Origin: an uncultured Methanosarcinales archaeon
GTDB taxonomy: Archaea > Nanobdellota > Nanobdellia > Woesearchaeales > CG1-02-33-12
Length of the DNA: 36,452 bases
Assembly (NCBI GenBank): GCA_964458955.1
Contig: CAYWLA010000002.1
Coordinates: 1 to 36,452, forward strand
Direction of reading: 5' to 3'
This document shows positions 16,142 through 32,428 of the stretch, one piece after another. Numbering within the stretch: the first letter of the stretch is position 1; every line of letters begins with the position of its first letter. The notes beneath the pieces are model-generated. The model saw only the letters and a program-made list of their open reading frames with translations. It had not been told where the DNA came from and did no database searches. A program made the translations under genes and the position numbers.

Positions 16142-16656
16142 TTAAAATGAGCTTACTAAGATTTTTGAATTCAAATAAGAATGCCAGAAAAGTATTTGGC
16201 AAAAGGGAATTAAAGATAATTGAAAAGCAATTATTAGGGTTAAATTTAACACAATCAGAAAAAAACAGGCTTTCAAGGGATATAAGACAGAAACTTGAAT
16301 TTATTAAAGAAGCATCCAGATTTTCTGAAGAATTTAAGCTTAAGAAGGGATTTGAAATAAAAAAGGTGGTTGAAGAAGCAAAAAAAACTATTTTAAATGA
16401 TATTCTTTTTAGAAAGATTAAAAAAGTCTTATTATTTGGCTCTTTGGTTGAGAACAAATTCACTTTCAAATCTGACATAGATATAGCAGTAAAATTTGAT
16501 AATGTAAATATAAAGGAATCTGCCCTTTTTAGAAAAAGAATTTCAGGCAAAGTTAACCAAAAAGTAGATGTTCAAGTTTACAATCACCTGCCTAGCAAGA
16601 TTAAAAAAGAGATTGACAATAAGGGAAGAATATTATATAAAAATGAGAATAAATGA
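16132..16656 (+). CDS. mntA: MNT-type minimal nucleotidyltransferase (antitoxin MntA-like) with ~75-aa N-terminal extension
   Basis: The Pol-beta NTase motif LLFGSLVENKFTFKSDIDIAV is present. The start is either TTG 16132 or ATG 16147. The gene overlaps the downstream HEPN gene by 14 nt. Confidence 0.75.
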   Translation: MRLFKMSLLRFLNSNKNARKVFGKRELKIIEKQLLGLNLTQSEKNRLSRDIRQKLEFIKEASRFSEEFKLKKGFEIKKVVEEAKKTILNDILFRKIKKVLLFGSLVENKFTFKSDIDIAVKFDNVNIKESALFRKRISGKVNQKVDVQVYNHLPSKIKKEIDNKGRILYKNENK

Positions 16657-17056
16657 TAAAATAAGGGAAATTGAGAATTATCTTTCTGAATTAGAGGAGA
16701 TTATGCCAAAAAGTTTCCATGAGTATAAAACTGAATTGAAAACAAAGGCGGCCTGTGAAAGGTACTTTGAGAAGATTATAGAAGCAGTAATTGATTTAGC
16801 CTTTTTAATAATTAAGGATAAAGGATATAAGATTCCTGAAGAAGATAAAGAGGCATTTGATATTCTTGCACAAGAAAAAATTATTTCGCAAGAATTAGCT
16901 ATAAGATTTAAAGAAGCAAAAGGAATGAGGAATATAATAGCCCATCAATATGGGAAAACTGATGATGAATTAATTTTTCACTCAATTACACAAGAGTTAG
17001 AATCAGATGTAAATGAACTAATCAAATTTCTTAAGCATACCAAAAAATTGCAGTAA
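16643..17056 (+). CDS. hepT: HEPN-domain (DUF86) toxin HepT-like
   Basis: The R-x4-H HEPN motif RNIIAHQYG lies near the C-terminus. Length from ATG 16643 is ~137 aa, in the canonical position downstream of MNT. Confidence 0.8.
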   Translation: MRINDKIREIENYLSELEEIMPKSFHEYKTELKTKAACERYFEKIIEAVIDLAFLIIKDKGYKIPEEDKEAFDILAQEKIISQELAIRFKEAKGMRNIIAHQYGKTDDELIFHSITQELESDVNELIKFLKHTKKLQ

Positions 17057-17582: not shown

Positions 17583-17631
17583 AAAACTTAACTCCCTACG
17601 GAAGATATAACAGGAATTCTGATGTTAATAG

Positions 17632-19095
17632 TTATTCCAAATCCCTAAATTCAATCTCTTTATCTATGAGTTTCCTTATAATATCTTTTATCTCAGCTAT
17701 CTTTATTCTAACTTGTTTCGTTGTATCCCTGTCTCTTATTGTAACTGTTTTGTCTTTTAATGAGTCAAAGTCAACTGTTATGCAGAAAGGGGTTCCAATC
17801 TCATCTGCTCTTGCATATCTTCTTCCAATAGAACCAGAGCGGTCATAACTTGTATTAAAGTATTTTTTTAAGTTTGCATGAATTTCCTTTGCTAATTTCT
17901 CAAGCTCTGGCTTGCCCATTAAAGGAAAAATGCCTGCTTTTATCGGAGACAGTTTAGGGTCAAGCTTTAAAACAATATTTCCTCTATTTTTATCATCATT
18001 ATAAGCATCAAACATAAACACAAGGAATGCGCGCCCAACACCAAGGCTTGGCTCTGCAACAACATGCGGAACAATTTTCTTGTTTGTTTCCTGGTCAAAT
18101 ATGCTCAAATCTTTCTTTGAATGCTTTATATGCTGCTGCAAGTCAAAATCACTTCTGTCTGCTATTCCCTCAAGCTCTTTCCATCCAAATGGAAAATTAT
18201 ATTCAATGTCCCAGCAGTCAGAGGAATAATGTGCAAGCTCATCTTTAAGATGCTGTCTTATCCTGAAATTGTCTGGATTTGCCCCGAGGCTGATAAACCA
18301 TTTATGTTCTGTTGCAAGCCAGTATGTAAGCCATTCCGTGTTTATTATCTTGTTTTTTAATGCCTGTTCTATTGTCATCTTTTTAGGATTTTGATTTTTC
18401 TTCTGTGTTTCCTCTGAAAGAACATTTATCTCGTGTTTTAAAACATCTTTTATGAAAGGGCATTTTTTTGCATTATCAGGATGAACAAAATATTCTATTT
18501 CCATCTGCTCAAACTCACGGCATCTGAATAAAAAATCTCTTGGTGATATTTCATTCCTGAATGCCTTGCCAATCTGTGCAATTCCAAAAGGCAGTTTTAA
18601 TCTTGAGCTTTCTGCGACAAGCTTGAAATTTGCGAAGATTAGCTGTGCTGTCTCTGGCCTCAAGTAAGCAGTGCTGCCCTCTACTGGCCCAACATTAGTT
18701 TTGAACATAAGGTTAAGGTCTCCTATAACATCATATTCTCCGCTGCATTCACATTTTAGTTTTCCTATTTCACTCTTGTCTATCTTGTTTGGCTTTTTGC
18801 ATTTTTTGCATTTTACATGGACATCACTGAAGTTTTCGACATGGCCGGAAGCCTCCCAAACACTTGGATTTGTTATAATGCTTCCGTCAATGCCTACTAT
18901 ATCCTCTCTCTCCTGAACATGGAATTTCCACCATTCCATTTTGATATTATTATTTATTTCAACGCAATTCGGCCCAAAGTCAAAGAATCCTGACAGGCCT
19001 CCGTAAATCTCTCCACTAGGAAATACAAGGCCTTTCTTTTTGCAGAAAACGGCCATATCTTCAATTGATAGCTTATTATCTGCCATAATAGACAT
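17632..19095 (-). CDS. glyS: Glycine--tRNA ligase (archaeal/eukaryotic alpha2 type)
   Basis: Supporting motifs are FPSGEIYGGLSGFFDFGP, LRPETAQLIF, FRNEISPR, a class II core and a C-terminal anticodon-binding domain (...GTPFCITVDFDS). Length is 487 aa. Confidence 0.95.
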   Translation of the reverse strand: MSIMADNKLSIEDMAVFCKKKGLVFPSGEIYGGLSGFFDFGPNCVEINNNIKMEWWKFHVQEREDIVGIDGSIITNPSVWEASGHVENFSDVHVKCKKCKKPNKIDKSEIGKLKCECSGEYDVIGDLNLMFKTNVGPVEGSTAYLRPETAQLIFANFKLVAESSRLKLPFGIAQIGKAFRNEISPRDFLFRCREFEQMEIEYFVHPDNAKKCPFIKDVLKHEINVLSEETQKKNQNPKKMTIEQALKNKIINTEWLTYWLATEHKWFISLGANPDNFRIRQHLKDELAHYSSDCWDIEYNFPFGWKELEGIADRSDFDLQQHIKHSKKDLSIFDQETNKKIVPHVVAEPSLGVGRAFLVFMFDAYNDDKNRGNIVLKLDPKLSPIKAGIFPLMGKPELEKLAKEIHANLKKYFNTSYDRSGSIGRRYARADEIGTPFCITVDFDSLKDKTVTIRDRDTTKQVRIKIAEIKDIIRKLIDKEIEFRDLE

Positions 19096-19142
19096 AATTA
19101 AAAACCTCTAATATAAAATTGTTTCTATCTAAGTGGTTCAAC

Positions 19143-19463
19143 ATGGAAACAAACAAATATAATCTGTGTGTTGAATGTTTTATGGAAGAGGCCATTACAA
19201 TTTCAGTGGGAGAGAAAAAGACCTTAAAGCCGGGTTTTATGAAGTGGATGGGCCTTGTATACTGCGGAATGCCAAATGAAAATACTTTTTCTCTGAGCTA
19301 TATGGAGACTGCTGGTTACCAAGGATATGCTCTAAATTTGTTTTATCCAAAGATCATGAGCAAGATAAAAATAAAAAATATTGAGTTTAATGTCTTGAGT
19401 GTAACACCTGAGAAAATCATAATCCAGCAGGTAAAAAACCCATTAGGCAAGAGTTCTTTTTGA
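19143..19463 (+). CDS. Hypothetical protein
   Basis: An ORF from ATG 19143 (the ORF-track start 19119 is TTG) with no recognised motif. Confidence 0.35.
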   Translation: METNKYNLCVECFMEEAITISVGEKKTLKPGFMKWMGLVYCGMPNENTFSLSYMETAGYQGYALNLFYPKIMSKIKIKNIEFNVLSVTPEKIIIQQVKNPLGKSSF

Positions 19464-19472
19464 TTATTTGGC

Positions 19473-19487
19473 AAAAATATTTAAATG
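19473..19487 (+). promoter_or_regulatory. BRE/TATA-like promoter (AAAAATATTTAAATG)
   Basis: It lies ~25 nt upstream of ATG 19508. Confidence 0.4.
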
Positions 19488-19507
19488 ATTGAATTTACCT
19501 AAAATTA

Positions 19508-20005
19508 ATGGAATATGCTGAAAAATTCTCATTCAATGTAAAATGGAATTATAAAACAATTGTCTTATTTTTATCCTTAATGATCCTGCCTAATTTATTA
19601 GGCCTAATAAACTTAAACACTGTTTGGGGTTTTAAGATTCATTTTTTTCAGATAGCTGTTTTTATTGCGGCATTAATATACGGCCCAAAAGGAGGAATGT
19701 TGTCAGGATTAGTTGGTTCTTTGTATTCTGCCTTTGTTATGGGCAATCCATATATTGCAATAGGTAATGCTATTCTTGGATTTTTTGTTGGCTTGTTTGT
19801 AAGATACAAGTTTAATACAATTATTGCAGTAATGTTAGCTTATCTTATTCAGCTGCCATGGTTAATTATCACTGATTATTATTTGGTAAGTTTACCAACC
19901 AATTTTATCTTGAAGTTGATTTTAGCATTGGCAATATCAAATCTGATATGGGCAATAGTAGCAAATTACACTGTAAAACCAATTAAAGAATCCTTAAGAT
20001 GTTAA
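19508..20005 (+). CDS. Polytopic membrane protein, ECF-transporter S-component-like (tentative)
   Basis: It has about 5 TM helices and Gly-rich helices (ALIYGPKGGMLSGLVGSLYSAF, NAILGFFVGLF) reminiscent of ECF substrate-capture subunits. It overlaps the next gene by 7 nt. Confidence 0.45.
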   Translation: MEYAEKFSFNVKWNYKTIVLFLSLMILPNLLGLINLNTVWGFKIHFFQIAVFIAALIYGPKGGMLSGLVGSLYSAFVMGNPYIAIGNAILGFFVGLFVRYKFNTIIAVMLAYLIQLPWLIITDYYLVSLPTNFILKLILALAISNLIWAIVANYTVKPIKESLRC

Positions 20006-20400
20006 GTCCTGATTTTACAAAATACTCCCTTGCATTAATTAAAGATAATAATATTGTATTTTCCTCAGATAAGTCTGGTTTAAGACCTTTAATAGAATGT
20101 GTAAAGAAATATAAATCTAAATTCAAGGATTGCACATTACATGACAAGGTTGTTGGGCTTGCATCCGCCAGGTTTATAGTGTATTCAAATATGATTTCTC
20201 TGGTTATTACTGATGTTGCTTCAAAACCAGCTGAAGAGTTATTAAATAAAAATAATATAATACTAAAATCAAATAAGATTGTTAATAATATTTTAAATAA
20301 AGATAAATCAGCTATCTGTCCAATGGAGATAAAAGCTCAGGGAATAGACAACAATAAGGATTTTTTCTTGGAAATAAATGATATATTTTATCCCTCATGA
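19999..20400 (+). CDS. DUF1893 (TM1506-like) domain protein
   Basis: IVFSSDKSGLRPLIE...LHDKVVGLASARFIVYS...AEELLNKNNI...AICPMEI matches my recollection of the DUF1893 pattern (DKVVGKAAA ... CPME). Confidence 0.55.
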   Translation: MLSPDFTKYSLALIKDNNIVFSSDKSGLRPLIECVKKYKSKFKDCTLHDKVVGLASARFIVYSNMISLVITDVASKPAEELLNKNNIILKSNKIVNNILNKDKSAICPMEIKAQGIDNNKDFFLEINDIFYPS

Positions 20401-20485
20401 TGAATCAAGAGTTATTTCCTTTCGGTCAATCTTTTCCTTTAAGAGAAGTATGGCCAGTGTTGAGGTATTTTCAATTTACTCAAAT

Positions 20486-20500
20486 AAAAGGATATTTATA
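20486..20500 (+). promoter_or_regulatory. BRE/TATA-like promoter (AAAAGGATATTTATA)
   Basis: It lies ~25 nt upstream of ATG 20523. Confidence 0.4.
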
Positions 20501-20522
20501 GAATAAAGTATTATAATTAAAG

Positions 20523-20957
20523 ATGACAAAAAAGATAATAAAAAGGCTAAAGGAGCATTTTAAGGAAGTGCTGGGAATAAAGACTTCTCCCCACTCGATT
20601 GCATTAGGATTTGCAATAGGCACATTCATAGCAATACTTCCCACCTTGGGCTTTACATATCTTATTGCTATTATTGTTATGCTGGCATATGCAAAAGAAA
20701 GCAAGATTGCTCTTTTTGGCGCTTTGCTGCTTTGGAATCCTTTTGTGCTGTTTCCAATTTACACATTGAGCTATAGGCTTGGTGATTTCATACTAAAAGG
20801 TTCTCCTGCAATATATCCTCTGCAGGGGATTGAGCAGTTTAGGTATTCAACTTTAAAGTTTTTAGCAGGAAATTTTATTATAGCAGTGTTTTTTTCTGTA
20901 ACCAGTTATTTTATTATAAGGAAATTAGTAAGCTACAGCAGAAAAACAAAGATTTAA
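20523..20957 (+). CDS. DUF2062-family membrane protein
   Basis: SPHSIALGFAIGTFIAILPTLG followed by further TM helices is typical of DUF2062. Confidence 0.6.
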   Translation: MTKKIIKRLKEHFKEVLGIKTSPHSIALGFAIGTFIAILPTLGFTYLIAIIVMLAYAKESKIALFGALLLWNPFVLFPIYTLSYRLGDFILKGSPAIYPLQGIEQFRYSTLKFLAGNFIIAVFFSVTSYFIIRKLVSYSRKTKI

Positions 20958-20982
20958 AAGCAACTTCTAATAAACGGCCGGG

Positions 20983-22374
20983 ATGGATGACAAAGAAGAA
21001 AAAATAAAAAAGAGCCTTAAGTATTCAATCTTTGACGGGGCATTCTATTGGATGATGGTTGGCTTTGGCGAGTCATTCATTGCAGCATTTGCTGTTTTCC
21101 TCAAGGCAACAAATATCCAGCTTGGATTGCTGAGTTCCCTGCCAAAAGCATTTGGCTCATTATCACAACTTTTCTCAAACTGGCTTATCAGAATTTTCAA
21201 AACAAGGAAAAGAATTGTCTGCATAAGCTCATTCCTTCAGGGATTTATGTACATACCCATTGCGCTTGTTTTTTTCTTTGGTGAGCTTAGCATACCTATT
21301 TTGATAATTTTTGTCTGTCTTTACTGGGTTTTTGGAGTCATAGGAAATCCTGCATGGAGCAGCTGGATGGGTGACCTTGTAAGCGATGAAAACAGGGGAG
21401 ATTATTTTGGAAACAGAAACAAAATCGGAAACCTTGTATCGTTTGTGTCACTTCTTTTGGCAGGCTATATACTCCAAAAGTTTTCAACAGGGACTTTTAT
21501 GGAATATACAGGATTCTCCATAATCTTCTCGCTTGCATTCATTTCAAGGATAATCTCATTTTTTTATCTAACAAAGCAATATGAGCCTGAATATGAGTTT
21601 GCGCCAAATGCAAATTTCAGCTTTATGCAATTTGTTAAGCAGGCAAGGTTCAGAAATTACGGGCTTTTTGTTTTTTATCTCAGTCTGATGAATTTTGGTG
21701 TTTACATATCAGCACCTTTTTTCACTCCTTACATGCTTTATGACCTGAAACTTAATTATACCACATTTACAATGATAACTGCAATCGCACTGATCACAAA
21801 ATTCGCGATGATGCCTGTATGGGGAAAGTTGTCTGACAAATACGGAACAAAAAAAGTTCTTGTACTGGCAGGATTCCTAATGCCTGCAACACCTATTTTA
21901 TGGATTTTTTCAACAAATATCTACTATCTTATGTTTGCACAGGTTTTTGCCGGCTTTTCATGGGCAGGATTTGATATAGCATCATTTAATTTTATTTTTG
22001 ACACCACAAAACGGGAAAAAAGAGCAACCTGTGTTGCTTACTATAATGTGCTCACCGGATTTGCAATATTTGTTGGAGCAATACTTGGTGGATTAATTGT
22101 AAAATACAATTCATTTTTCTGGTCAAAATATTACATTGTTTTCATAATAAGCTTTGTGATGAGGTATGCTGCCTCATTTATATTCCTGCCAAAACTCAGG
22201 GAAGTGAGAATTGTTGAGGAAATATCAAGCCGCAAACTGCTCATGAAAGCACTCACAACAAGGCCTTCAAGCGGCCTAGTCTCAAACATAATGAATTTTA
22301 GGAGAAACAACAATGGAAATGTTAAAAGCCCTCGTTTTATGTTTAAGCTTCCGATGCGCAAGAAAAAACCATAA
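20983..22374 (+). CDS. MFS-type transporter
   Basis: It has about 12 TM helices in two six-helix halves. An MFS-like loop (GKLSDKYGTKKV) opens the second half. Confidence 0.75.
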   Translation: MDDKEEKIKKSLKYSIFDGAFYWMMVGFGESFIAAFAVFLKATNIQLGLLSSLPKAFGSLSQLFSNWLIRIFKTRKRIVCISSFLQGFMYIPIALVFFFGELSIPILIIFVCLYWVFGVIGNPAWSSWMGDLVSDENRGDYFGNRNKIGNLVSFVSLLLAGYILQKFSTGTFMEYTGFSIIFSLAFISRIISFFYLTKQYEPEYEFAPNANFSFMQFVKQARFRNYGLFVFYLSLMNFGVYISAPFFTPYMLYDLKLNYTTFTMITAIALITKFAMMPVWGKLSDKYGTKKVLVLAGFLMPATPILWIFSTNIYYLMFAQVFAGFSWAGFDIASFNFIFDTTKREKRATCVAYYNVLTGFAIFVGAILGGLIVKYNSFFWSKYYIVFIISFVMRYAASFIFLPKLREVRIVEEISSRKLLMKALTTRPSSGLVSNIMNFRRNNNGNVKSPRFMFKLPMRKKKP

Positions 22375-22396
22375 TCAATTAAGAGAAAAGTATGAA

Positions 22397-22620
22397 TTAA
22401 TTTTTTCTGAGCCACTCAATCTCATCCTTGTCAAGCTCAAACTCCTGTGCAATCTTGCCTGATAGCTCTTTGTTTTTTTTAAATATTAAAGATAAGTATG
22501 GCAATGTATCCTGCAATGCCCTTCTTGAAGAGGTATGTGTTTTCTCTGCAATCTTTGATGCAATGCTCTTTCTTTTCTGATGCTTTATGTTTGCTCTCAA
22601 CAGCTTAAGAATTCTTTTTG
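22397..22620 (-). pseudogene. Detached duplicate of the rfcL 3' end (C-terminal ~70 codons)
   Basis: It translates to ...SKRILKLLRANIKHQKRKSIASKIAEKTHTSSRRALQDTLPYLSLIFKKNKELSGKIAQEFELDKDEIEWLRKN*. This is near-identical to the C-terminus of the intact RFC large-subunit gene 1,289 bp away. No upstream RFC domains are present. Confidence 0.85.
22416..22567. repeat. 152-bp perfect direct repeat, copy A
   Basis: It is base-for-base identical to 23705-23856 by hand alignment. Homology continues outside with mismatches. Confidence 0.9.
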
Positions 22621-22623
22621 AAA

Positions 22624-23001
22624 TTATGGTTTTTTAGAATAATTTTTACTCAAAGTTTTATAAGCATCCCTGATTCTCCCAACAAGCCCATAACCAAGTG
22701 TATTGGTTTCTTCAAGTCCTTTTTCTCTTGAAATAATATCTGCTGCTGTAATTAAATTAGTAACCAACAAACCAATACCAGGATTACGTATATAACACAC
22801 ACTCATGGCTATTACTGCAGAAGTCTCAAGAGTTATTGGTAGACTACTTTTACAAAAATTAAGCCAATCTTTTCTCCCATCATATTTTTCCTCTGAAAAT
22901 TCTATTTGTAAAGGGCTATTTAGCAACTCTGTTCTGTTACCTAGCAAATAGTCTCTAATTCCCTGTATTATTTTCTCATAGTTTTCATTCATTTTATACA
23001 A
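22624..23001 (-). CDS. Hypothetical protein (cassette gene 1, 125 aa)
   Basis: An ORF with ATG, transcribed divergently from the 189-aa ORF. It has a central moderately hydrophobic stretch (SAVIAMSVCYIRNPGIGLLVTNLITAADII) and no motif I recognise. Confidence 0.45.
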   Translation of the reverse strand: MYKMNENYEKIIQGIRDYLLGNRTELLNSPLQIEFSEEKYDGRKDWLNFCKSSLPITLETSAVIAMSVCYIRNPGIGLLVTNLITAADIISREKGLEETNTLGYGLVGRIRDAYKTLSKNYSKKP

Positions 23002-23116
23002 ATTAGAATTAATAACAGTTATATAAATCTTTCTCTCATAACTACTTTTTAGGGATAAAAATAGTAAGATTTATAAAGTATAATAAAACTATAATTAAAA
23101 TAATCCTGGATGCAAA

Positions 23117-23686
23117 ATGACAATAGGAAAAAACCAAAATAAAAGTGCTGATATTAAAAATAACAAAAGTTTAGGTTATATTATAAAGGAATTTTCAAAT
23201 ATCAAGGTTGATATTAAGGGAAGGGGCAGCAAGGACTCTTATTATATTGATAATTTAGGGATTCCTCTGAATAATACAAGTGAAACATTGGCATATGCTT
23301 TAGCATCAGAAATTGAAAAAACCAATCGTTTTATAGGTGCAACTATTGATTTCTATGCTAAAGGTGTAAGGGGATATGATGAATCAGAAGATAAATTCCT
23401 TTTTAGGGATCAGTGCTTGCATTGGTTAATTGAATATTTTGCAAAAAAAGAACTTGTTTATGGGATAGTAATAAATCATAAAAAAATTAGCAAAACACCA
23501 AGAATTCTAGAAAGTGCATCACAAATGAAGGAATTTTTTCAAAAGGAAGGTGATTGGCATGACTCAAAGAAAGTTGCAGGAACAATTTTTGTTCCCTCAG
23601 AAAAATATACAAAATATATCTGGGGATTTGATTATAAGTTAAAGGATTTAAAGAGGTTTATTGATTTTAAGCAAAATACTAATTAA
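23117..23686 (+). CDS. Hypothetical protein (cassette gene 2, 189 aa)
   Basis: An ORF with ATG whose stop overlaps the rfcL stop convergently. No motif recognised. Confidence 0.5.
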   Translation: MTIGKNQNKSADIKNNKSLGYIIKEFSNIKVDIKGRGSKDSYYIDNLGIPLNNTSETLAYALASEIEKTNRFIGATIDFYAKGVRGYDESEDKFLFRDQCLHWLIEYFAKKELVYGIVINHKKISKTPRILESASQMKEFFQKEGDWHDSKKVAGTIFVPSEKYTKYIWGFDYKLKDLKRFIDFKQNTN

Positions 23687-24897
23687 TTATTTCTTCCCAA
23701 CCATTCAATCTCATCCTTGTCAAGCTCAAACTCCTGTGCAATCTTGCCTGATAGCTCTTTGTTTTTTTTAAATATTAAAGATAAGTATGGCAATGTATCC
23801 TGCAATGCCCTTCTTGAAGAGGTATGTGTTTTCTCTGCAATCTTTGATGCAATGCTTTTTCTTTTCTGGTACTTCATTTTTGCTCTCCATAGCTTAAGGA
23901 TTCTTGTTGTCGGCTTGTAAGAAGTAAACCCCTTATATTTTTCATCTTTTGCAACAGCAACTCCTGCTGATATCATTGCATTTACATAAATAAGAAATCT
24001 CCAGTGCTGCCACCTTCTTATTCTTCCGTTAAAAACATCTGCCCTTGACAAATAATCATAAGCCCTTGCCAAATCTTCTGGCTTTTGGTATTCATCTGGA
24101 AGGTTCTGGTCAATCCATAAAATCTGCTTGCCAATATCCTCTTCAACATTCTCAAATGCCCTTATTGCAATGTTTATGTCTGTTGTCTTGAAAACTTTCA
24201 TTAATGCGCTAATCATGTTTTCTGTTCTGTTCCTGTCAGAAAGCTCATTTAAATCTTCGTTTTTAAGCTCTTTTTTTTCATGAGCTAATGTCTGCAAATC
24301 GTTTATTGCAGATCTTAAATCTCCTGCAGCATGTCTTGCCAATGATTTTAATGCATCTTCATCAAATTTTATTTTTTCTTCTGCGCATATGCTTTTTAAA
24401 ACAGAGAAAACAGACAGGTAGTTAAGTGTGTGGAATTGAATAAGTTCTGATTTTTTTCTTAATGCATTAAGTTTCTGCTCATAAGGGTTAGTTGCAGTCA
24501 TAATAACCGGAAAGATGCTTTTATCAATTAGTTTTGCAAGTGCAGATATTCCTCCCCTGTCATTTTTTCCTGAAAGCCCATCAATCTCGTCAACAAGGAT
24601 TATTTTATTGTTTGAAAAAAGACTTCTCTGCATTATTGCAGGGCCAAGTGTTGATTCTATGCTGCTCTTGTTCCTGAAGTCAGATGCATTTAATTCAAAG
24701 ACTTCATAGTTTAAATCAGCTGCAATGGCATAAGCAGAGCATGTCTTTCCAACTCCTGACTGGCCATATATAATTGCTGCTTTTTTTTTCTGATTTTTGA
24801 AATTAAGAATAAAGTTTTTTAGTTCTAAGAGTGCCTTGTCATGGCCTTTAAGTTCACTTGTATTTTTTGGCTGGTATTTCTTTGTCCATGGAGTCAT
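23683..24897 (-). CDS. rfcL: Replication factor C large subunit
   Basis: MTPWTKKYQPKNTSELKGHD (the W-x-x-KY-x-P start), Walker A GQSGVGKTCSAY, ELNASDFR and Walker B ILVDEIDG are present. ATG 24897 is preferred over TTG 24909. Confidence 0.9.
   Translation of the reverse strand: MTPWTKKYQPKNTSELKGHDKALLELKNFILNFKNQKKKAAIIYGQSGVGKTCSAYAIAADLNYEVFELNASDFRNKSSIESTLGPAIMQRSLFSNNKIILVDEIDGLSGKNDRGGISALAKLIDKSIFPVIMTATNPYEQKLNALRKKSELIQFHTLNYLSVFSVLKSICAEEKIKFDEDALKSLARHAAGDLRSAINDLQTLAHEKKELKNEDLNELSDRNRTENMISALMKVFKTTDINIAIRAFENVEEDIGKQILWIDQNLPDEYQKPEDLARAYDYLSRADVFNGRIRRWQHWRFLIYVNAMISAGVAVAKDEKYKGFTSYKPTTRILKLWRAKMKYQKRKSIASKIAEKTHTSSRRALQDTLPYLSLIFKKNKELSGKIAQEFELDKDEIEWLGRNN
23705..23856. 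repeat. 152-bp perfect direct repeat, copy B (inside rfcL 3' end)
   Basis: Identical to 22416-22567. Confidence 0.9.
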
Positions 24898-25036
24898 AAA
24901 TAATAACAATAGAAAGGAGTTTATTAAGGTTTTGGTTGAATATCTTTCAATTTAACATGAAAATATTTCTTAAAGTCAATAATCCTGCGAAAAAAACTAG
25001 CAAACCCTTATTAAAAATAATTCTTCATAACATCAT

Positions 25037-29077: not shown

Positions 29078-29536
29078 ATGCTTATGCCAGAAAAAAAAGA
29101 TGTGATAATCAAGTTTATTAAAGAATGGACTATTGGTTATGTAAAGCACAGGGATATTTTAACCAAGAATATAATTGATATAAAAGAAGAGCCAGACAGG
29201 GTTATTGTTAAGTTCAAGGAAAAAGAACAGGTATTTTTGATAAGGCCAACTATAAATGATTCTGTTATTAAAGAGGTAAACAAAAACATTAGCATTGTTA
29301 TGCTGAACTCAAAGGAAAACCTTGACTTTCTTATGAATAAATGGAATAAATTAATAAAATTTGAAAAACTAACACTCTTTTTTATAAATCCCTTTTCAGA
29401 GCCTGACAAGAAATGGTTTATCTCGCCTTACATACACAATAAAATATGTGATGAGGATTCTTTAAGGCTCGGCCTCAAGACAATGTTTGAGACTGTTGAG
29501 GCTATAACAGAAAAAGATATAATTAAAAAAATATGA
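29078..29536 (+). CDS. Hypothetical protein
   Basis: A 152-aa ORF (ATG 29078 or 29084) with an A/T-rich TATA-like box at ~29048-29064. No motif recognised. Confidence 0.5.
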   Translation: MLMPEKKDVIIKFIKEWTIGYVKHRDILTKNIIDIKEEPDRVIVKFKEKEQVFLIRPTINDSVIKEVNKNISIVMLNSKENLDFLMNKWNKLIKFEKLTLFFINPFSEPDKKWFISPYIHNKICDEDSLRLGLKTMFETVEAITEKDIIKKI

Positions 29537-30946: not shown

Positions 30947-31657
30947 TTATTTCAGATAATAAACTATGTTCACATTAGCTGTAACCTTTACATCAGAGGG
31001 CATTATTGTTGCAGCCTCTTCAACCGCTAATTCTCCTGCGGCCTTCACCATATCATATCTATAGGGCATGTAATAGAAGTTGCTTTCTGAAACTGTTTTT
31101 ATTTTTCCCAGTTTTGCTCCTAGGCTTTCTGCAAGTATTTCTGCTTTTTCCTTTGCATTTTTAGCTGCCTCTGACAATGCCTGTTTTTTGTATTCCTGCT
31201 CTTTTTCTTGAGTTAATCCAAAGTTTATGTTATTGATCTGGTTTGCCCCGTTATTAACAGCAATATCAACTATTGTTCCAACTTTTGTTAAGTCAGCTGT
31301 CTTTATCTTTAGTGTTTGTGTTGCCCTCCATCCAATAACCTTTGAGCCCTCATCCTGTGTCCATGTTCTTTCCTCATACAGATTTAAGCTCTCTGTCTCA
31401 ATGTCATCTTCTGATATGCCTTTATATCTTAGGCCATCAATTATTGCATTAACAACCTTATTTGCTTCTGATTGTGCCTCTTCTGCAGTGTCCTTTACAA
31501 TAGAAATCCCCGCCCATACCTCTGCCTCATCTGGGTCAAATGTAAGCTCCGATGTTCCCTGTGCATTTAGTGTATTCCCTTCATTTGTCTGTTGGCATCC
31601 TGTCAAACCGATTAAGGCAATAACCAGCAATATTCCAAAAATCATATGTATTTTCAT
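30947..31657 (-). CDS. SIMPL-domain (DUF541) lipoprotein
   Basis: ATG 31657 lies 7 nt after GGAGGT. The signal peptide carries a lipobox (LIGLTGC). A SIMPL-like body follows (GTSELTFDPDEAEVWAGISI..., KGISEDDIET...). Confidence 0.75.
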   Translation of the reverse strand: MKIHMIFGILLVIALIGLTGCQQTNEGNTLNAQGTSELTFDPDEAEVWAGISIVKDTAEEAQSEANKVVNAIIDGLRYKGISEDDIETESLNLYEERTWTQDEGSKVIGWRATQTLKIKTADLTKVGTIVDIAVNNGANQINNINFGLTQEKEQEYKKQALSEAAKNAKEKAEILAESLGAKLGKIKTVSESNFYYMPYRYDMVKAAGELAVEEAATIMPSDVKVTANVNIVYYLK

Positions 31658-31714
31658 TTTAAATACCTCCATACAACAAGAATAATCTTGTTTCTTTTAA
31701 GCTTTTACCTTATC

Positions 31715-31730
31715 TTCGGTTAAAACCGAA
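31715..31730. terminator. Short perfect palindrome TTCGGTTAAAACCGAA just downstream of yggS
   Basis: It is visible directly in the sequence, 9 nt past the yggS stop on the minus strand. Its role as a terminator is an inference. Confidence 0.3.
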
Positions 31731-31738
31731 ACATGAAT

Positions 31739-32428
31739 TTATTTTCTTTCTCCAAAGATTGCTGTTCCGATTCTTACCATGTTGCTTCCTTCTTCTATGG
31801 CAACCTTATAGGAATTTGTCATTCCCATGGACAGTGTTTTCATGCTCACATTAGGCAGGTTAAGGGCCTTGATCTTGTCAAAGATTTCTTTTGTTCTCTT
31901 GAAATATTGCCTGGAGTTCTCAGGGTCTCCAAACCTTGGGCCCATTGTCATCAAGCCCTCTACTCTTATATGCTCCAATTTTGAAATATTTTTAATTAAA
32001 TTTTTTATATATTCCTCAAATGGCTCATGCTCATCTGGTTTTATGCCTGCTTTTGAATCCTCGCTGCCAATGTTTATTTCTATATAAACAGGCATTATGG
32101 TTTTTCCAGCTGCTTCAACCCTCTTGTCTATTGCCTGTGCTTTTTCATATGAATCAACAGTCTGTATTATATCAAAAATAGGAATGACTTTGTTTATCTT
32201 GTTTTTTTGTAGATGGCCAATCATATGCCATTTGACTTTTTTTGTTATTTCGCCAAGCTGCTCATGCATTTCCTGCGCTTCCTGAACATAATTTTCTCCA
32301 AGGTCAGTAGCGCCTGCCTCAATAAGCTCTTCTATTTCTTCCTTTGTTCTCTGCTTTGCAGCTATAACCAAGGTTACATGGCCTGGGATTTCTCTTCTAA
32401 TTTTTTTATAATTTTCAGCTATGCTCAT
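31739..32428 (-). CDS. yggS: YggS-family pyridoxal-phosphate homeostasis protein
   Basis: VTLVIAAKQRT (PLP Lys), GENYVQE, WHMIGHLQKNK and LSMGMTNSY are present. ATG 32428 is preferred over GTG 32437. Confidence 0.9.
   Translation of the reverse strand: MSIAENYKKIRREIPGHVTLVIAAKQRTKEEIEELIEAGATDLGENYVQEAQEMHEQLGEITKKVKWHMIGHLQKNKINKVIPIFDIIQTVDSYEKAQAIDKRVEAAGKTIMPVYIEINIGSEDSKAGIKPDEHEPFEEYIKNLIKNISKLEHIRVEGLMTMGPRFGDPENSRQYFKRTKEIFDKIKALNLPNVSMKTLSMGMTNSYKVAIEEGSNMVRIGTAIFGERK

Follow-up and report, generated by a model that had tools for sequence, protein, structure and literature searches.

The 36,452-nt window analysed here (contig CAYWLA010000002.1, to whose positions all coordinates refer) comes from an uncultivated DPANN archaeon and contains, at the 3′ end of the gene for the large subunit of replication factor C (RFC-L), a 1,289-bp cassette of two open reading frames (ORFs), ORF125 and ORF189, enclosed by two direct copies of that gene end. 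The cassette is probably a piece of a related Woesearchaeota chromosome that was circularised at a microhomology and inserted at RFC-L by a Campbell-type crossover, whose flanking copies then underwent gene conversion, and which loops out again by host recombination. This reading draws on the anatomy of the repeat and its junction, a reciprocal mosaic in the two copies, the haplotypes of strains, empty sites in relatives, an assembly path that closes into a circle, and a protein with the sequence predicted for the empty site; numbered loci (L0xx) and proteins (P0xxx) are the collected relatives.

Four stages would account for the present arrangement. A piece of the related chromosome would first have been closed into a circle at a 10–14-nt microhomology, AAGAATTCTT, which is present both in RFC-L and in the tail of a gene encoding a 93-residue protein (the 93-aa gene). 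The circle, carrying RFC-L sequence of one clade, would then have recombined through RFC-L homology with a resident chromosome of the L024/L025 clade, in which RFC-L converges on a gene for an MFS transporter, by a single crossover about 15–25 nt before the stop codon. Such an insertion would duplicate the RFC-L 3′ end, the functional gene (copy B) gaining the incoming last codons (GRNN*) and a dead copy A being left beside the MFS gene. Later gene conversion could have erased differences in the middle of the repeat, giving rise to a 152-nt perfect core in the strain represented by the window, and homologous recombination between the copies would finally release a circle of 1,289 bp and restore the empty site. 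Host recombination would suffice, with no part for an integrase, Rep or transposase. We infer that the integrating form was a circle rather than a linear fragment.

The locus is an unusually well-resolved new example of a known recombination mechanism, here in an uncultivated archaeon. Gene gain and loss in DPANN archaea are largely inferred from comparisons, and this locus allows one gain to be reconstructed base by base, from a chromosomal fragment closed at a microhomology, by way of its single-crossover insertion at an essential gene and the homogenising effect of gene conversion, to loop-out, with both recombination products on record in public metagenomes.

Repeat structure at the RFC-L 3′ end

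Positions 22416–22567 and 23705–23856, offset by 1,289 nt, share the same 152 nt without a single difference, and a repeat search extends the pair to 22400–22620 and 23689–23909 (221 nt, 94% identity). An earlier note on this DNA had described the identity, the offset, the diverged arms around the core and a 3-nt indel among the arm differences (EWLRKN* in copy A, EWLGRNN* in copy B), and each of these is as it was described. Its assignment of copy B to the functional RFC-L 3′ end and of copy A to a detached fragment beside the MFS gene is borne out by Pfam domains and alignment; copy A begins 22 nt downstream of the MFS gene. The repeat length of about 220 bp reported there holds for the match as a whole and not for its RFC-L-derived part: homology to RFC-L in copy A stops at ~22616, and the rest of the apparent match is the 10–14-nt microhomology with the tail of the 93-aa gene.

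Between the copies there are, as had also been stated, only two divergent ORFs and a 115-bp AT-rich region, although ORF125 has 122 rather than 125 codons when read from its ATG. Neither ORF has a match in Pfam, PHROG or PADLOC, which agrees with the further statement that the cassette encodes no integrase, Rep or transposase. The cassette has a GC content of 28.6%, against 33.1% for the window (4th percentile), and its tetranucleotide distance is ordinary, 14% of windows being more distant; in these two comparisons with the window, composition gives no clear sign of a distant origin. An Rfam scan of 22000–24300 returned no match. The genes bordering the cassette (MFS, RFC-L, a subtilase, an Mre11-like gene and similar) are housekeeping genes.

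Reciprocal mosaic of the two copies

The origin of each copy was assessed at the 24 sites, in alignment columns 9–232, that distinguish A2 from B2 (haplotypes of copy A and copy B, described below), by comparison with the RFC-L clades. Copy A has the states of another clade (L045, L046, L026–28, L012) over columns 9–202 and those of L024 over columns 215–232. Copy B2 has the states of the L024/L025 clade over columns 9–202 and those of L045 over columns 215–232, so that both copies change clade affinity within one shared interval, columns 202–215. At the protein level, the other clade is marked by RAN...SSKR and the L024/L025 clade by RAK...SSRR. The internal 190 nt of copy A bear other-clade markers, and at least five derived or diagnostic states are shared with that different clade, while the last 15 nt on the stop side are, like the MFS flank, of the resident, L024-like type.

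The gene endings are distributed in the same crossed manner. The resident-type end, EWLRKN*, sits on copy A, and the EWLGRNN ending, outside this population (P0136, P0142), occurs only in P0018 of L045, a locus that carries ORF189. The GRNN* ending and the empty sites of relatives support the proposal that the cassette was inserted at the 3′ end of RFC-L and brought its own version of that end. In addition, copy A has three private non-synonymous changes (W→L, M→I and Y→H) and, because these hit residues that are invariant in all examined RFC-L relatives, it has evidently drifted as a pseudogene since insertion.

A single putative reciprocal crossover, at 22412–22423 in copy A and 23701–23712 in copy B, explains both copies, and the insertion of a small circle by Campbell-type homologous recombination, which the earlier note had raised, fits the reciprocal mosaic and its shared breakpoint best. 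The mosaic therefore favours Campbell-type integration over homology-facilitated illegitimate recombination (HFIR) or unequal crossover between diverged homologous chromosomes, which predict unmixed copies. Under these rivals no circle would form: a linear fragment comprising the 93-aa tail, ORF125, ORF189 and RFC-L would be anchored by homology in RFC-L or further downstream and joined at its other end at AAGAATTCTT in the recipient RFC-L, the recipient 3′ end becoming copy A. One event would be enough, the observed gene order would result, and the microhomology joint is exactly of the kind that HFIR makes (3–10 bp joints; PMC6382021). Yet copy A should then be wholly recipient and copy B wholly donor, and to make both switch at columns 202–215 an independent, coincident mosaic breakpoint would be required in each parent. 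A linear route of this kind is accordingly a serious contender that we nonetheless consider unlikely.

The MFS gene at 20983–22374 is ~98.5% identical in nucleotide sequence to L024 4845–6233, compared with 73–96% for the flanking RFC-L, subtilase and copy A sequences, which suggests a recent exchange of alleles confined to the MFS gene. Identity to L024 on either side of the cassette was tried as a means of discriminating Campbell-type insertion from HFIR and was set aside as uninformative, since only the MFS gene is unusually similar.

The inner junction

The opposite end of copy A has a different character. In six relatives (L012, L013, L015, L021, L022 and L049), the ORF125 stop codon is followed by TT and then by the reverse-complemented tail of the 93-aa gene, the sequence at the stop reading CCATAA TT TCAAAAAGAA[T/C]TCTTGCC. 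The window retains CCATAATTTCAAAAAGAATTCTT and then changes to the RFC-L sequence AAGCTGTTGAGAGC; RFC-L at the corresponding point reads CAACAAGAAT(C/T)CTTAAGCT. Common to the 93-aa gene tail and RFC-L is AAGAATTCTT (22607–22616), the first 10 nt of the segment termed junction J. Because the window switches from the one sequence to the other at this shared segment, the inner end of copy A is, by comparison with these relatives, an illegitimate joint within the 10–14-nt microhomology. The 22607–22616 sequence is also a perfect 10-nt palindrome containing GAATTC.

On the same comparative grounds, the cassette is a contiguous chromosomal segment made up of the ~205 nt at the 3′ end of RFC-L, ORF189, ORF125 and 15 nt of the 93-aa tail, and its source genome would have been arranged like L043, L045 and L012.

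Empty sites and transfer between lineages

Two close relatives retain what appears to be the original arrangement. In L024 (RFC-L 94% and MFS 98% identical at the amino acid level) and in L025 (RFC-L 92%), RFC-L has one 3′ end and converges directly on MFS, the cassette being absent. The polymorphism recurs in a second lineage: RFC-L of L046 has a single 3′ end and converges directly on MFS, and in its sister L045 RFC-L ends in ...EWLGRNN and is followed by ORF189 with the same 4-nt overlap of stop codons as in the window. The RFC-L sequences of L045 and L046 differ only in their last ~35 residues.

Between L045 and the window, ORF189 DNA differs at 11 of 354 sites and RFC-L at 128 of 1215 (Fisher p = 3e-6), corresponding to nucleotide identities of 97% and 89.5%, respectively. 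ORF189 is far closer to L045 than RFC-L is, and the cassette has therefore moved between lineages recently. The locus shows cassette exchange, free of integrases and driven by host recombination, at work between lineages that are ~10% diverged.

Strain haplotypes and gene conversion

The layout MFS–copy A–ORF125–ORF189–copy B–RFC-L recurs in nine more contigs. These come from sample records of JGI and ENA and from two assembly pipelines, and are 99.6–99.9% identical to the window, with their single-nucleotide polymorphisms (SNPs) in tight clusters. Among these strains, copy A exists in three haplotypes (A1–A3) and copy B in two (B1 and B2). In the A2/B2 strains (L003, L004 and L009), the copies differ at nine further positions within the core, which leaves 85 nt as the longest stretch of identity. 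The exact A1/B1 combination of the window is found in this contig only, and a near-perfect core is also present in L008.

Comparison of L004 with the window reveals 11 differences in 12.9 kb, 10 of them in the two repeat copies, and at each of these 10 the state in the window equals that of the window's other copy. Because the repeat differences from L004 all make the window copies more alike, the 152-nt perfect core is best read as the product of recent gene conversion between the copies, specific to the window strain, and not as a conserved recombination core; we infer that the conversion ran in this direction. The identity itself, in other words, stands as first described, and its interpretation as an att-like core does not. 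For genome scans this is a caution, as a perfect core with diverged arms can be a gene-conversion tract instead of an att site.

Co-occurring strains also differ in clusters of 17–32 SNPs per 100–300 nt at 19154–19466, 29431–29527 and 31592–31877, in contigs that are otherwise identical. One of these clusters covers the 93-aa gene, and judged by their density they look like imported recombination patches.

The evidence for conversion bears on another possible history, in which the RFC-L 3′ end of the resident was duplicated in situ long ago, the edges of the repeat diverged while its middle was homogenised, and recombination between the repeats repeatedly removed the cassette from sister lineages. 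Gene conversion is clearly at work here, conversion that spares the repeat edges would leave a perfect core with diverged arms, and the three private, degenerative substitutions in copy A would be expected of an old duplicate. However, copy A shares its diagnostic states with another RFC-L clade, junction J holds foreign sequence from the 93-aa tail, ORF189 shares 97% identity with a lineage from which RFC-L differs far more (89.5% identity), and independent losses would be needed in L024, L025 and L046. An in-situ origin is, in our estimation, improbable.

Probable excision of the cassette

Both products expected from recombination between the copies have counterparts in public data. L011 is a 1,430-bp MEGAHIT k141 contig with a 141-nt terminal direct overlap, and its assembly path closes into a circle of 1,289 bp. 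Apart from one mismatch it matches, as an exact rotation, the 1,289-bp unit found in L003, L004 and L009, and its single repeat is a hybrid of the expected kind, with the B2 sequence on the stop side, the A2 sequence on the internal side and the crossover within the 85-nt identical run. A trivial collapse of the assembly graph does not account for L011, because A2 and B2 share only 85 identical nt, fewer than k = 141; a loop of this kind can only come from 141-mers that are truly recombinant, whether they stem from a circle or from a tandem duplication. L011 presumably represents a physical circle.

The reciprocal product would encode the RFC-L body of the window with the ending EWLRKN, and precisely this protein exists as P0183 (403 aa) on an 8,924-bp ENA contig. 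P0183 is identical in amino acid sequence to the window RFC-L over the rest of its length, which argues for recent excision over an old lineage that never received the insertion. The checks that the earlier note had proposed, for an empty site and for a circle junction, have in this way each found a match: RFC-L is convergent on MFS in L024, L025 and L046, P0183 supplies the same-strain empty site as read from its C-terminus, and L011 carries the junction of a circle or a tandem unit. Overall, it seems from these sequences that the cassette loops out again by homologous recombination between its copies.

Several points weigh against this account. The clade assignment of the copies depends on ~5–12 sites that are informative among 224 nt, and the lineages compared are mosaic themselves: MFS, for instance, is ~98.5% identical to L024, against ~90–93% for its flanks. 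The donor order RFC-L–ORF189–ORF125–93-aa gene is not present on any single contig and was assembled from L043, L045 and L012. L011 may be the junction of a tandem duplication and not a free circle, the same junction being expected from both. Finally, that MFS follows RFC-L on the P0183 contig is deduced from the C-terminus of the protein alone, and P0183 might derive from a strain that was never given the insertion instead of one that lost it.

The earlier note had also compared the repeats to attL and attR. In one form of that interpretation, the cassette would be a non-autonomous, satellite-like integrative element that uses the 152-nt core as its att site and is moved in trans by an integrase whose gene lies elsewhere. 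Consistent with this, the target is the 3′ end of a conserved gene, the replacement end is supplied by the element, direct repeats, empty site and circular form all exist, and an IS200-like Y1 transposase gene lies ~20 kb away at 273–728. The core, however, is not conserved between strains, and the three inferred crossovers occupy different positions (columns 202–215 for integration, columns 103–187 for L011, and ~110 nt before the stop codon for the L045/L046 boundary). Furthermore, a microhomology joint to a neighbouring chromosomal gene marks the inner boundary, neither the cassette nor its vicinity encodes a recombinase, the ends of the insertion sequence (IS) are unlike those of the cassette, and the cargo genes belong to this chromosomal neighbourhood in relatives. 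The comparison with att sites is consequently withdrawn here as highly improbable.

The Y1 gene (Pfam Y1_Tnp, 2.6e-30) is the only transposase gene in the 36 kb and is followed by a 427-aa ORF (735–2018) that lacks a Pfam match; in IS200/IS605 elements, this position is normally occupied by TnpB. Dependence of the cassette on such an element (PATE-like) was considered and rejected, as comparison of the IS flanks (273–2018) with 22300–24000 gave only chance AT-rich matches of 8–16 nt.

An origin of the repeat or of the circular contig in the assembler is barely credible. The 152-nt identity does exceed common k-mer sizes, and the exact A1/B1 combination is confined to this contig. Against this, the same repeat–insert–repeat layout is present in the nine other contigs from two pipelines, with consistent haplotypes, the near-perfect core recurs in L008, and the L011 junction could only be built from 141-mers bridging variant sites that characterise different copies. 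The preferred reading thus remains Campbell-type insertion of a small circle followed by gene conversion and loop-out.

Genes carried by the cassette

ORF125 has homologues at 54–100% identity, plus one at 33% in L029, and a ratio of non-synonymous to synonymous substitution rates (dN/dS) of 0.25–0.44. It is predicted to be all-helical with a hydrophobic centre, from hydropathy and a low-confidence AlphaFold2 model (the models of the two ORFs have pLDDT values of 48 and 53). In relatives it always resides in the same neighbourhood, tail-to-tail with the 93-aa gene beside a class II tRNA synthetase gene (L012–L023, L049), and L012 and L029 also have it immediately downstream of RFC-L. Judged by these relatives, ORF125 is a conserved, lineage-specific gene of this chromosomal neighbourhood.

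ORF189 has few close relatives, and an exhaustive profile search places it in a small family of 34 representatives with a ~165-aa core and motifs such as FVPSxxYTxxxWGFxY; its dN/dS is 0.41–0.91. One remote relative, P0150, sits on an 864-bp contig. Foldseek comparison of the ORF189 model with the PDB gave no match with E < 0.07, and neither a profile search of PDB sequences nor a Pfam scan of 24 family members returned anything. In one metagenome contig collection, which evidently does not include the relevant JGI samples, an exact-pattern scan for the core and a protein scan for ORF189 were both empty.

The description of the pair as an orphan cassette consequently does not apply, given the conserved neighbourhood of ORF125 and the 34-member family of ORF189. 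The suggestion of a satellite-like mobile unit fares no better: ORF125 is chromosomal in relatives, and an IMG/VR search found relatives of neither ORF on viral contigs.

The spacer between the two ORFs is conserved upstream of ORF125 in L012 and L049. ORF189 together with the same upstream spacer is found next to ORF125 and RFC-L in the window, L043 and L045, and lies beside a different, 180-aa gene and a NUDIX gene in L042 and L044, where the spacer between the 180-aa gene and ORF189 (L042, 531–660; L044, 155–273) is ~86–90% conserved despite the different gene on one side. The spacer at 23002–23116 is probably a bidirectional promoter, and the putative promoter and ORF189 appear to move as one module.

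Conceivably, the 1,289-bp unit could be a minimal integrase-free mobile element, a circle present in multiple copies in some cells and spreading among Woesearchaeota lineages by host homologous recombination at an essential gene's 3′ end, with ORF189, ORF125 or both aiding its maintenance, excision or transfer. Hints in this direction are that ORF189 travels with its promoter into different contexts, that it is 97% identical across ~10%-diverged lineages, and that the assembler produced the circular contig as an isolated loop, suggesting much higher coverage there than at the chromosomal junctions. We regard an element of this type as distinctly unlikely.

Features of the locus and its surroundings

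Table 1. Coordinates of the cassette, its repeats and the adjoining genes in the window.
Feature	Position	Strand	Remarks
MFS transporter gene	20983–22374	+	Pfam MFS_1, 5.5e-34; resident left flank of the insertion
Copy A, detached RFC-L 3′-end pseudogene fragment, ~205–220 nt	22397–22616	−	
Perfect core of 152 nt, copy A side	22416–22567		Identical to 23705–23856
Inferred integration crossover interval	22412–22423 (copy A); 23701–23712 (copy B)		Both copies switch clade affinity there
Junction J, 15-nt remnant of the 93-aa gene tail	22607–22621	+	AAG AAT TCT TTT TGA, last five codons
ORF125	22624–22992	−	122 aa from ATG; upstream TTG at 23001 gives 125 aa
Divergent AT-rich intergenic region, 115 bp	23002–23116		19% GC; TATA-like boxes facing both ways
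ORF189	23117–23686	+	Stop codon overlaps the RFC-L stop codon by 4 nt
Copy B, functional RFC-L 3′ end	23686–23909	−	Internal part of resident clade; last ~15 nt (...GRNN*) probably came with the cassette
RFC large-subunit gene, 408 aa	23683–24909	−	Pfam AAA, RFC1-5-like lid, Rad17; named homologues; right flank, recombination anchor
Resident 93-aa gene	19119–19463	+	Tail abuts ORF125 in relatives; source context of the junction J remnant

The cassette lies within a larger interval, extending from the tRNA synthetase and 93-aa genes to RFC-L (17600–24900), that the locus marks out as a gene-turnover hot spot of this clade. Almost every relative (L012, L015, L021, L025, L026, L029, L046 and L049) has different contents there, which include ORF125, ORF189, NUDIX, one or two MFS genes, DUF2062, ECF-S, TM1506, and orphans of 147, 164/177, 180 and 192 aa. 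Within the spacer between the TM1506 and DUF2062 genes, at 20403–20475, 73 nt survive from the 3′ end of a NUDIX hydrolase gene, with 83–85% identity to the NUDIX genes of L025, L046 and L044; this remnant is the scar that an earlier replacement of a gene left in the variable region. Further upstream, at 16147–17056, is a nucleotidyltransferase (MNT-like) and HepT-like gene pair, a module of the toxin–antitoxin type (according to Pfam matches in the L002 counterparts of these genes).

Comparison with known systems

The closest parallel is Campbell-type insertion–duplication, as known from suicide plasmids and Hfr formation. There, as here, direct repeats that duplicate the segment of homology surround the insert, each copy is a hybrid of the incoming and resident alleles, reciprocal to the other, and recombination between the repeats regenerates the circle and the original site. 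The present case differs in that the circle would not have been a plasmid: it would have been a 1.3-kb piece of a related chromosome, devoid of replication or transfer genes and closed at a microhomology. It is, moreover, a natural case, its host is an uncultivated DPANN archaeon, and the insertion lies at a replication gene that is essential.

Integrase-borne elements that occupy the 3′ ends of tRNA or protein genes share with this cassette the insertion at a 3′ end for which a new end is supplied, the direct repeats, the empty site and the circular form. Unlike such elements, the cassette has no integrase, and instead of a short identical core it has diverged coding repeats of ~205 nt. Moreover, the position of the crossover varies, and one boundary is an illegitimate joint to another chromosomal gene.

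HFIR, which has been described in naturally transformable bacteria (de Vries & Wackernagel, 2002, and Prudhomme et al., 2002; summarised in PMC6382021), likewise combines a homologous anchor on one side with a short-microhomology joint on the other, and results in the gain of foreign genes beside a conserved gene. Here, the reciprocal mosaic fits a circular intermediate better, and the host is an archaeon.

Within the DPANN archaea, homologous recombination shapes population structure in Ca. Forterrea, as seen in patchy SNP clusters and allele exchange (PMC5905446). Patchy clusters and allele exchange between co-occurring strains are features common to that population and the one studied here, whereas at the RFC-L locus a single event of gene gain and gene loss can be reconstructed base by base, together with both of its recombination products.

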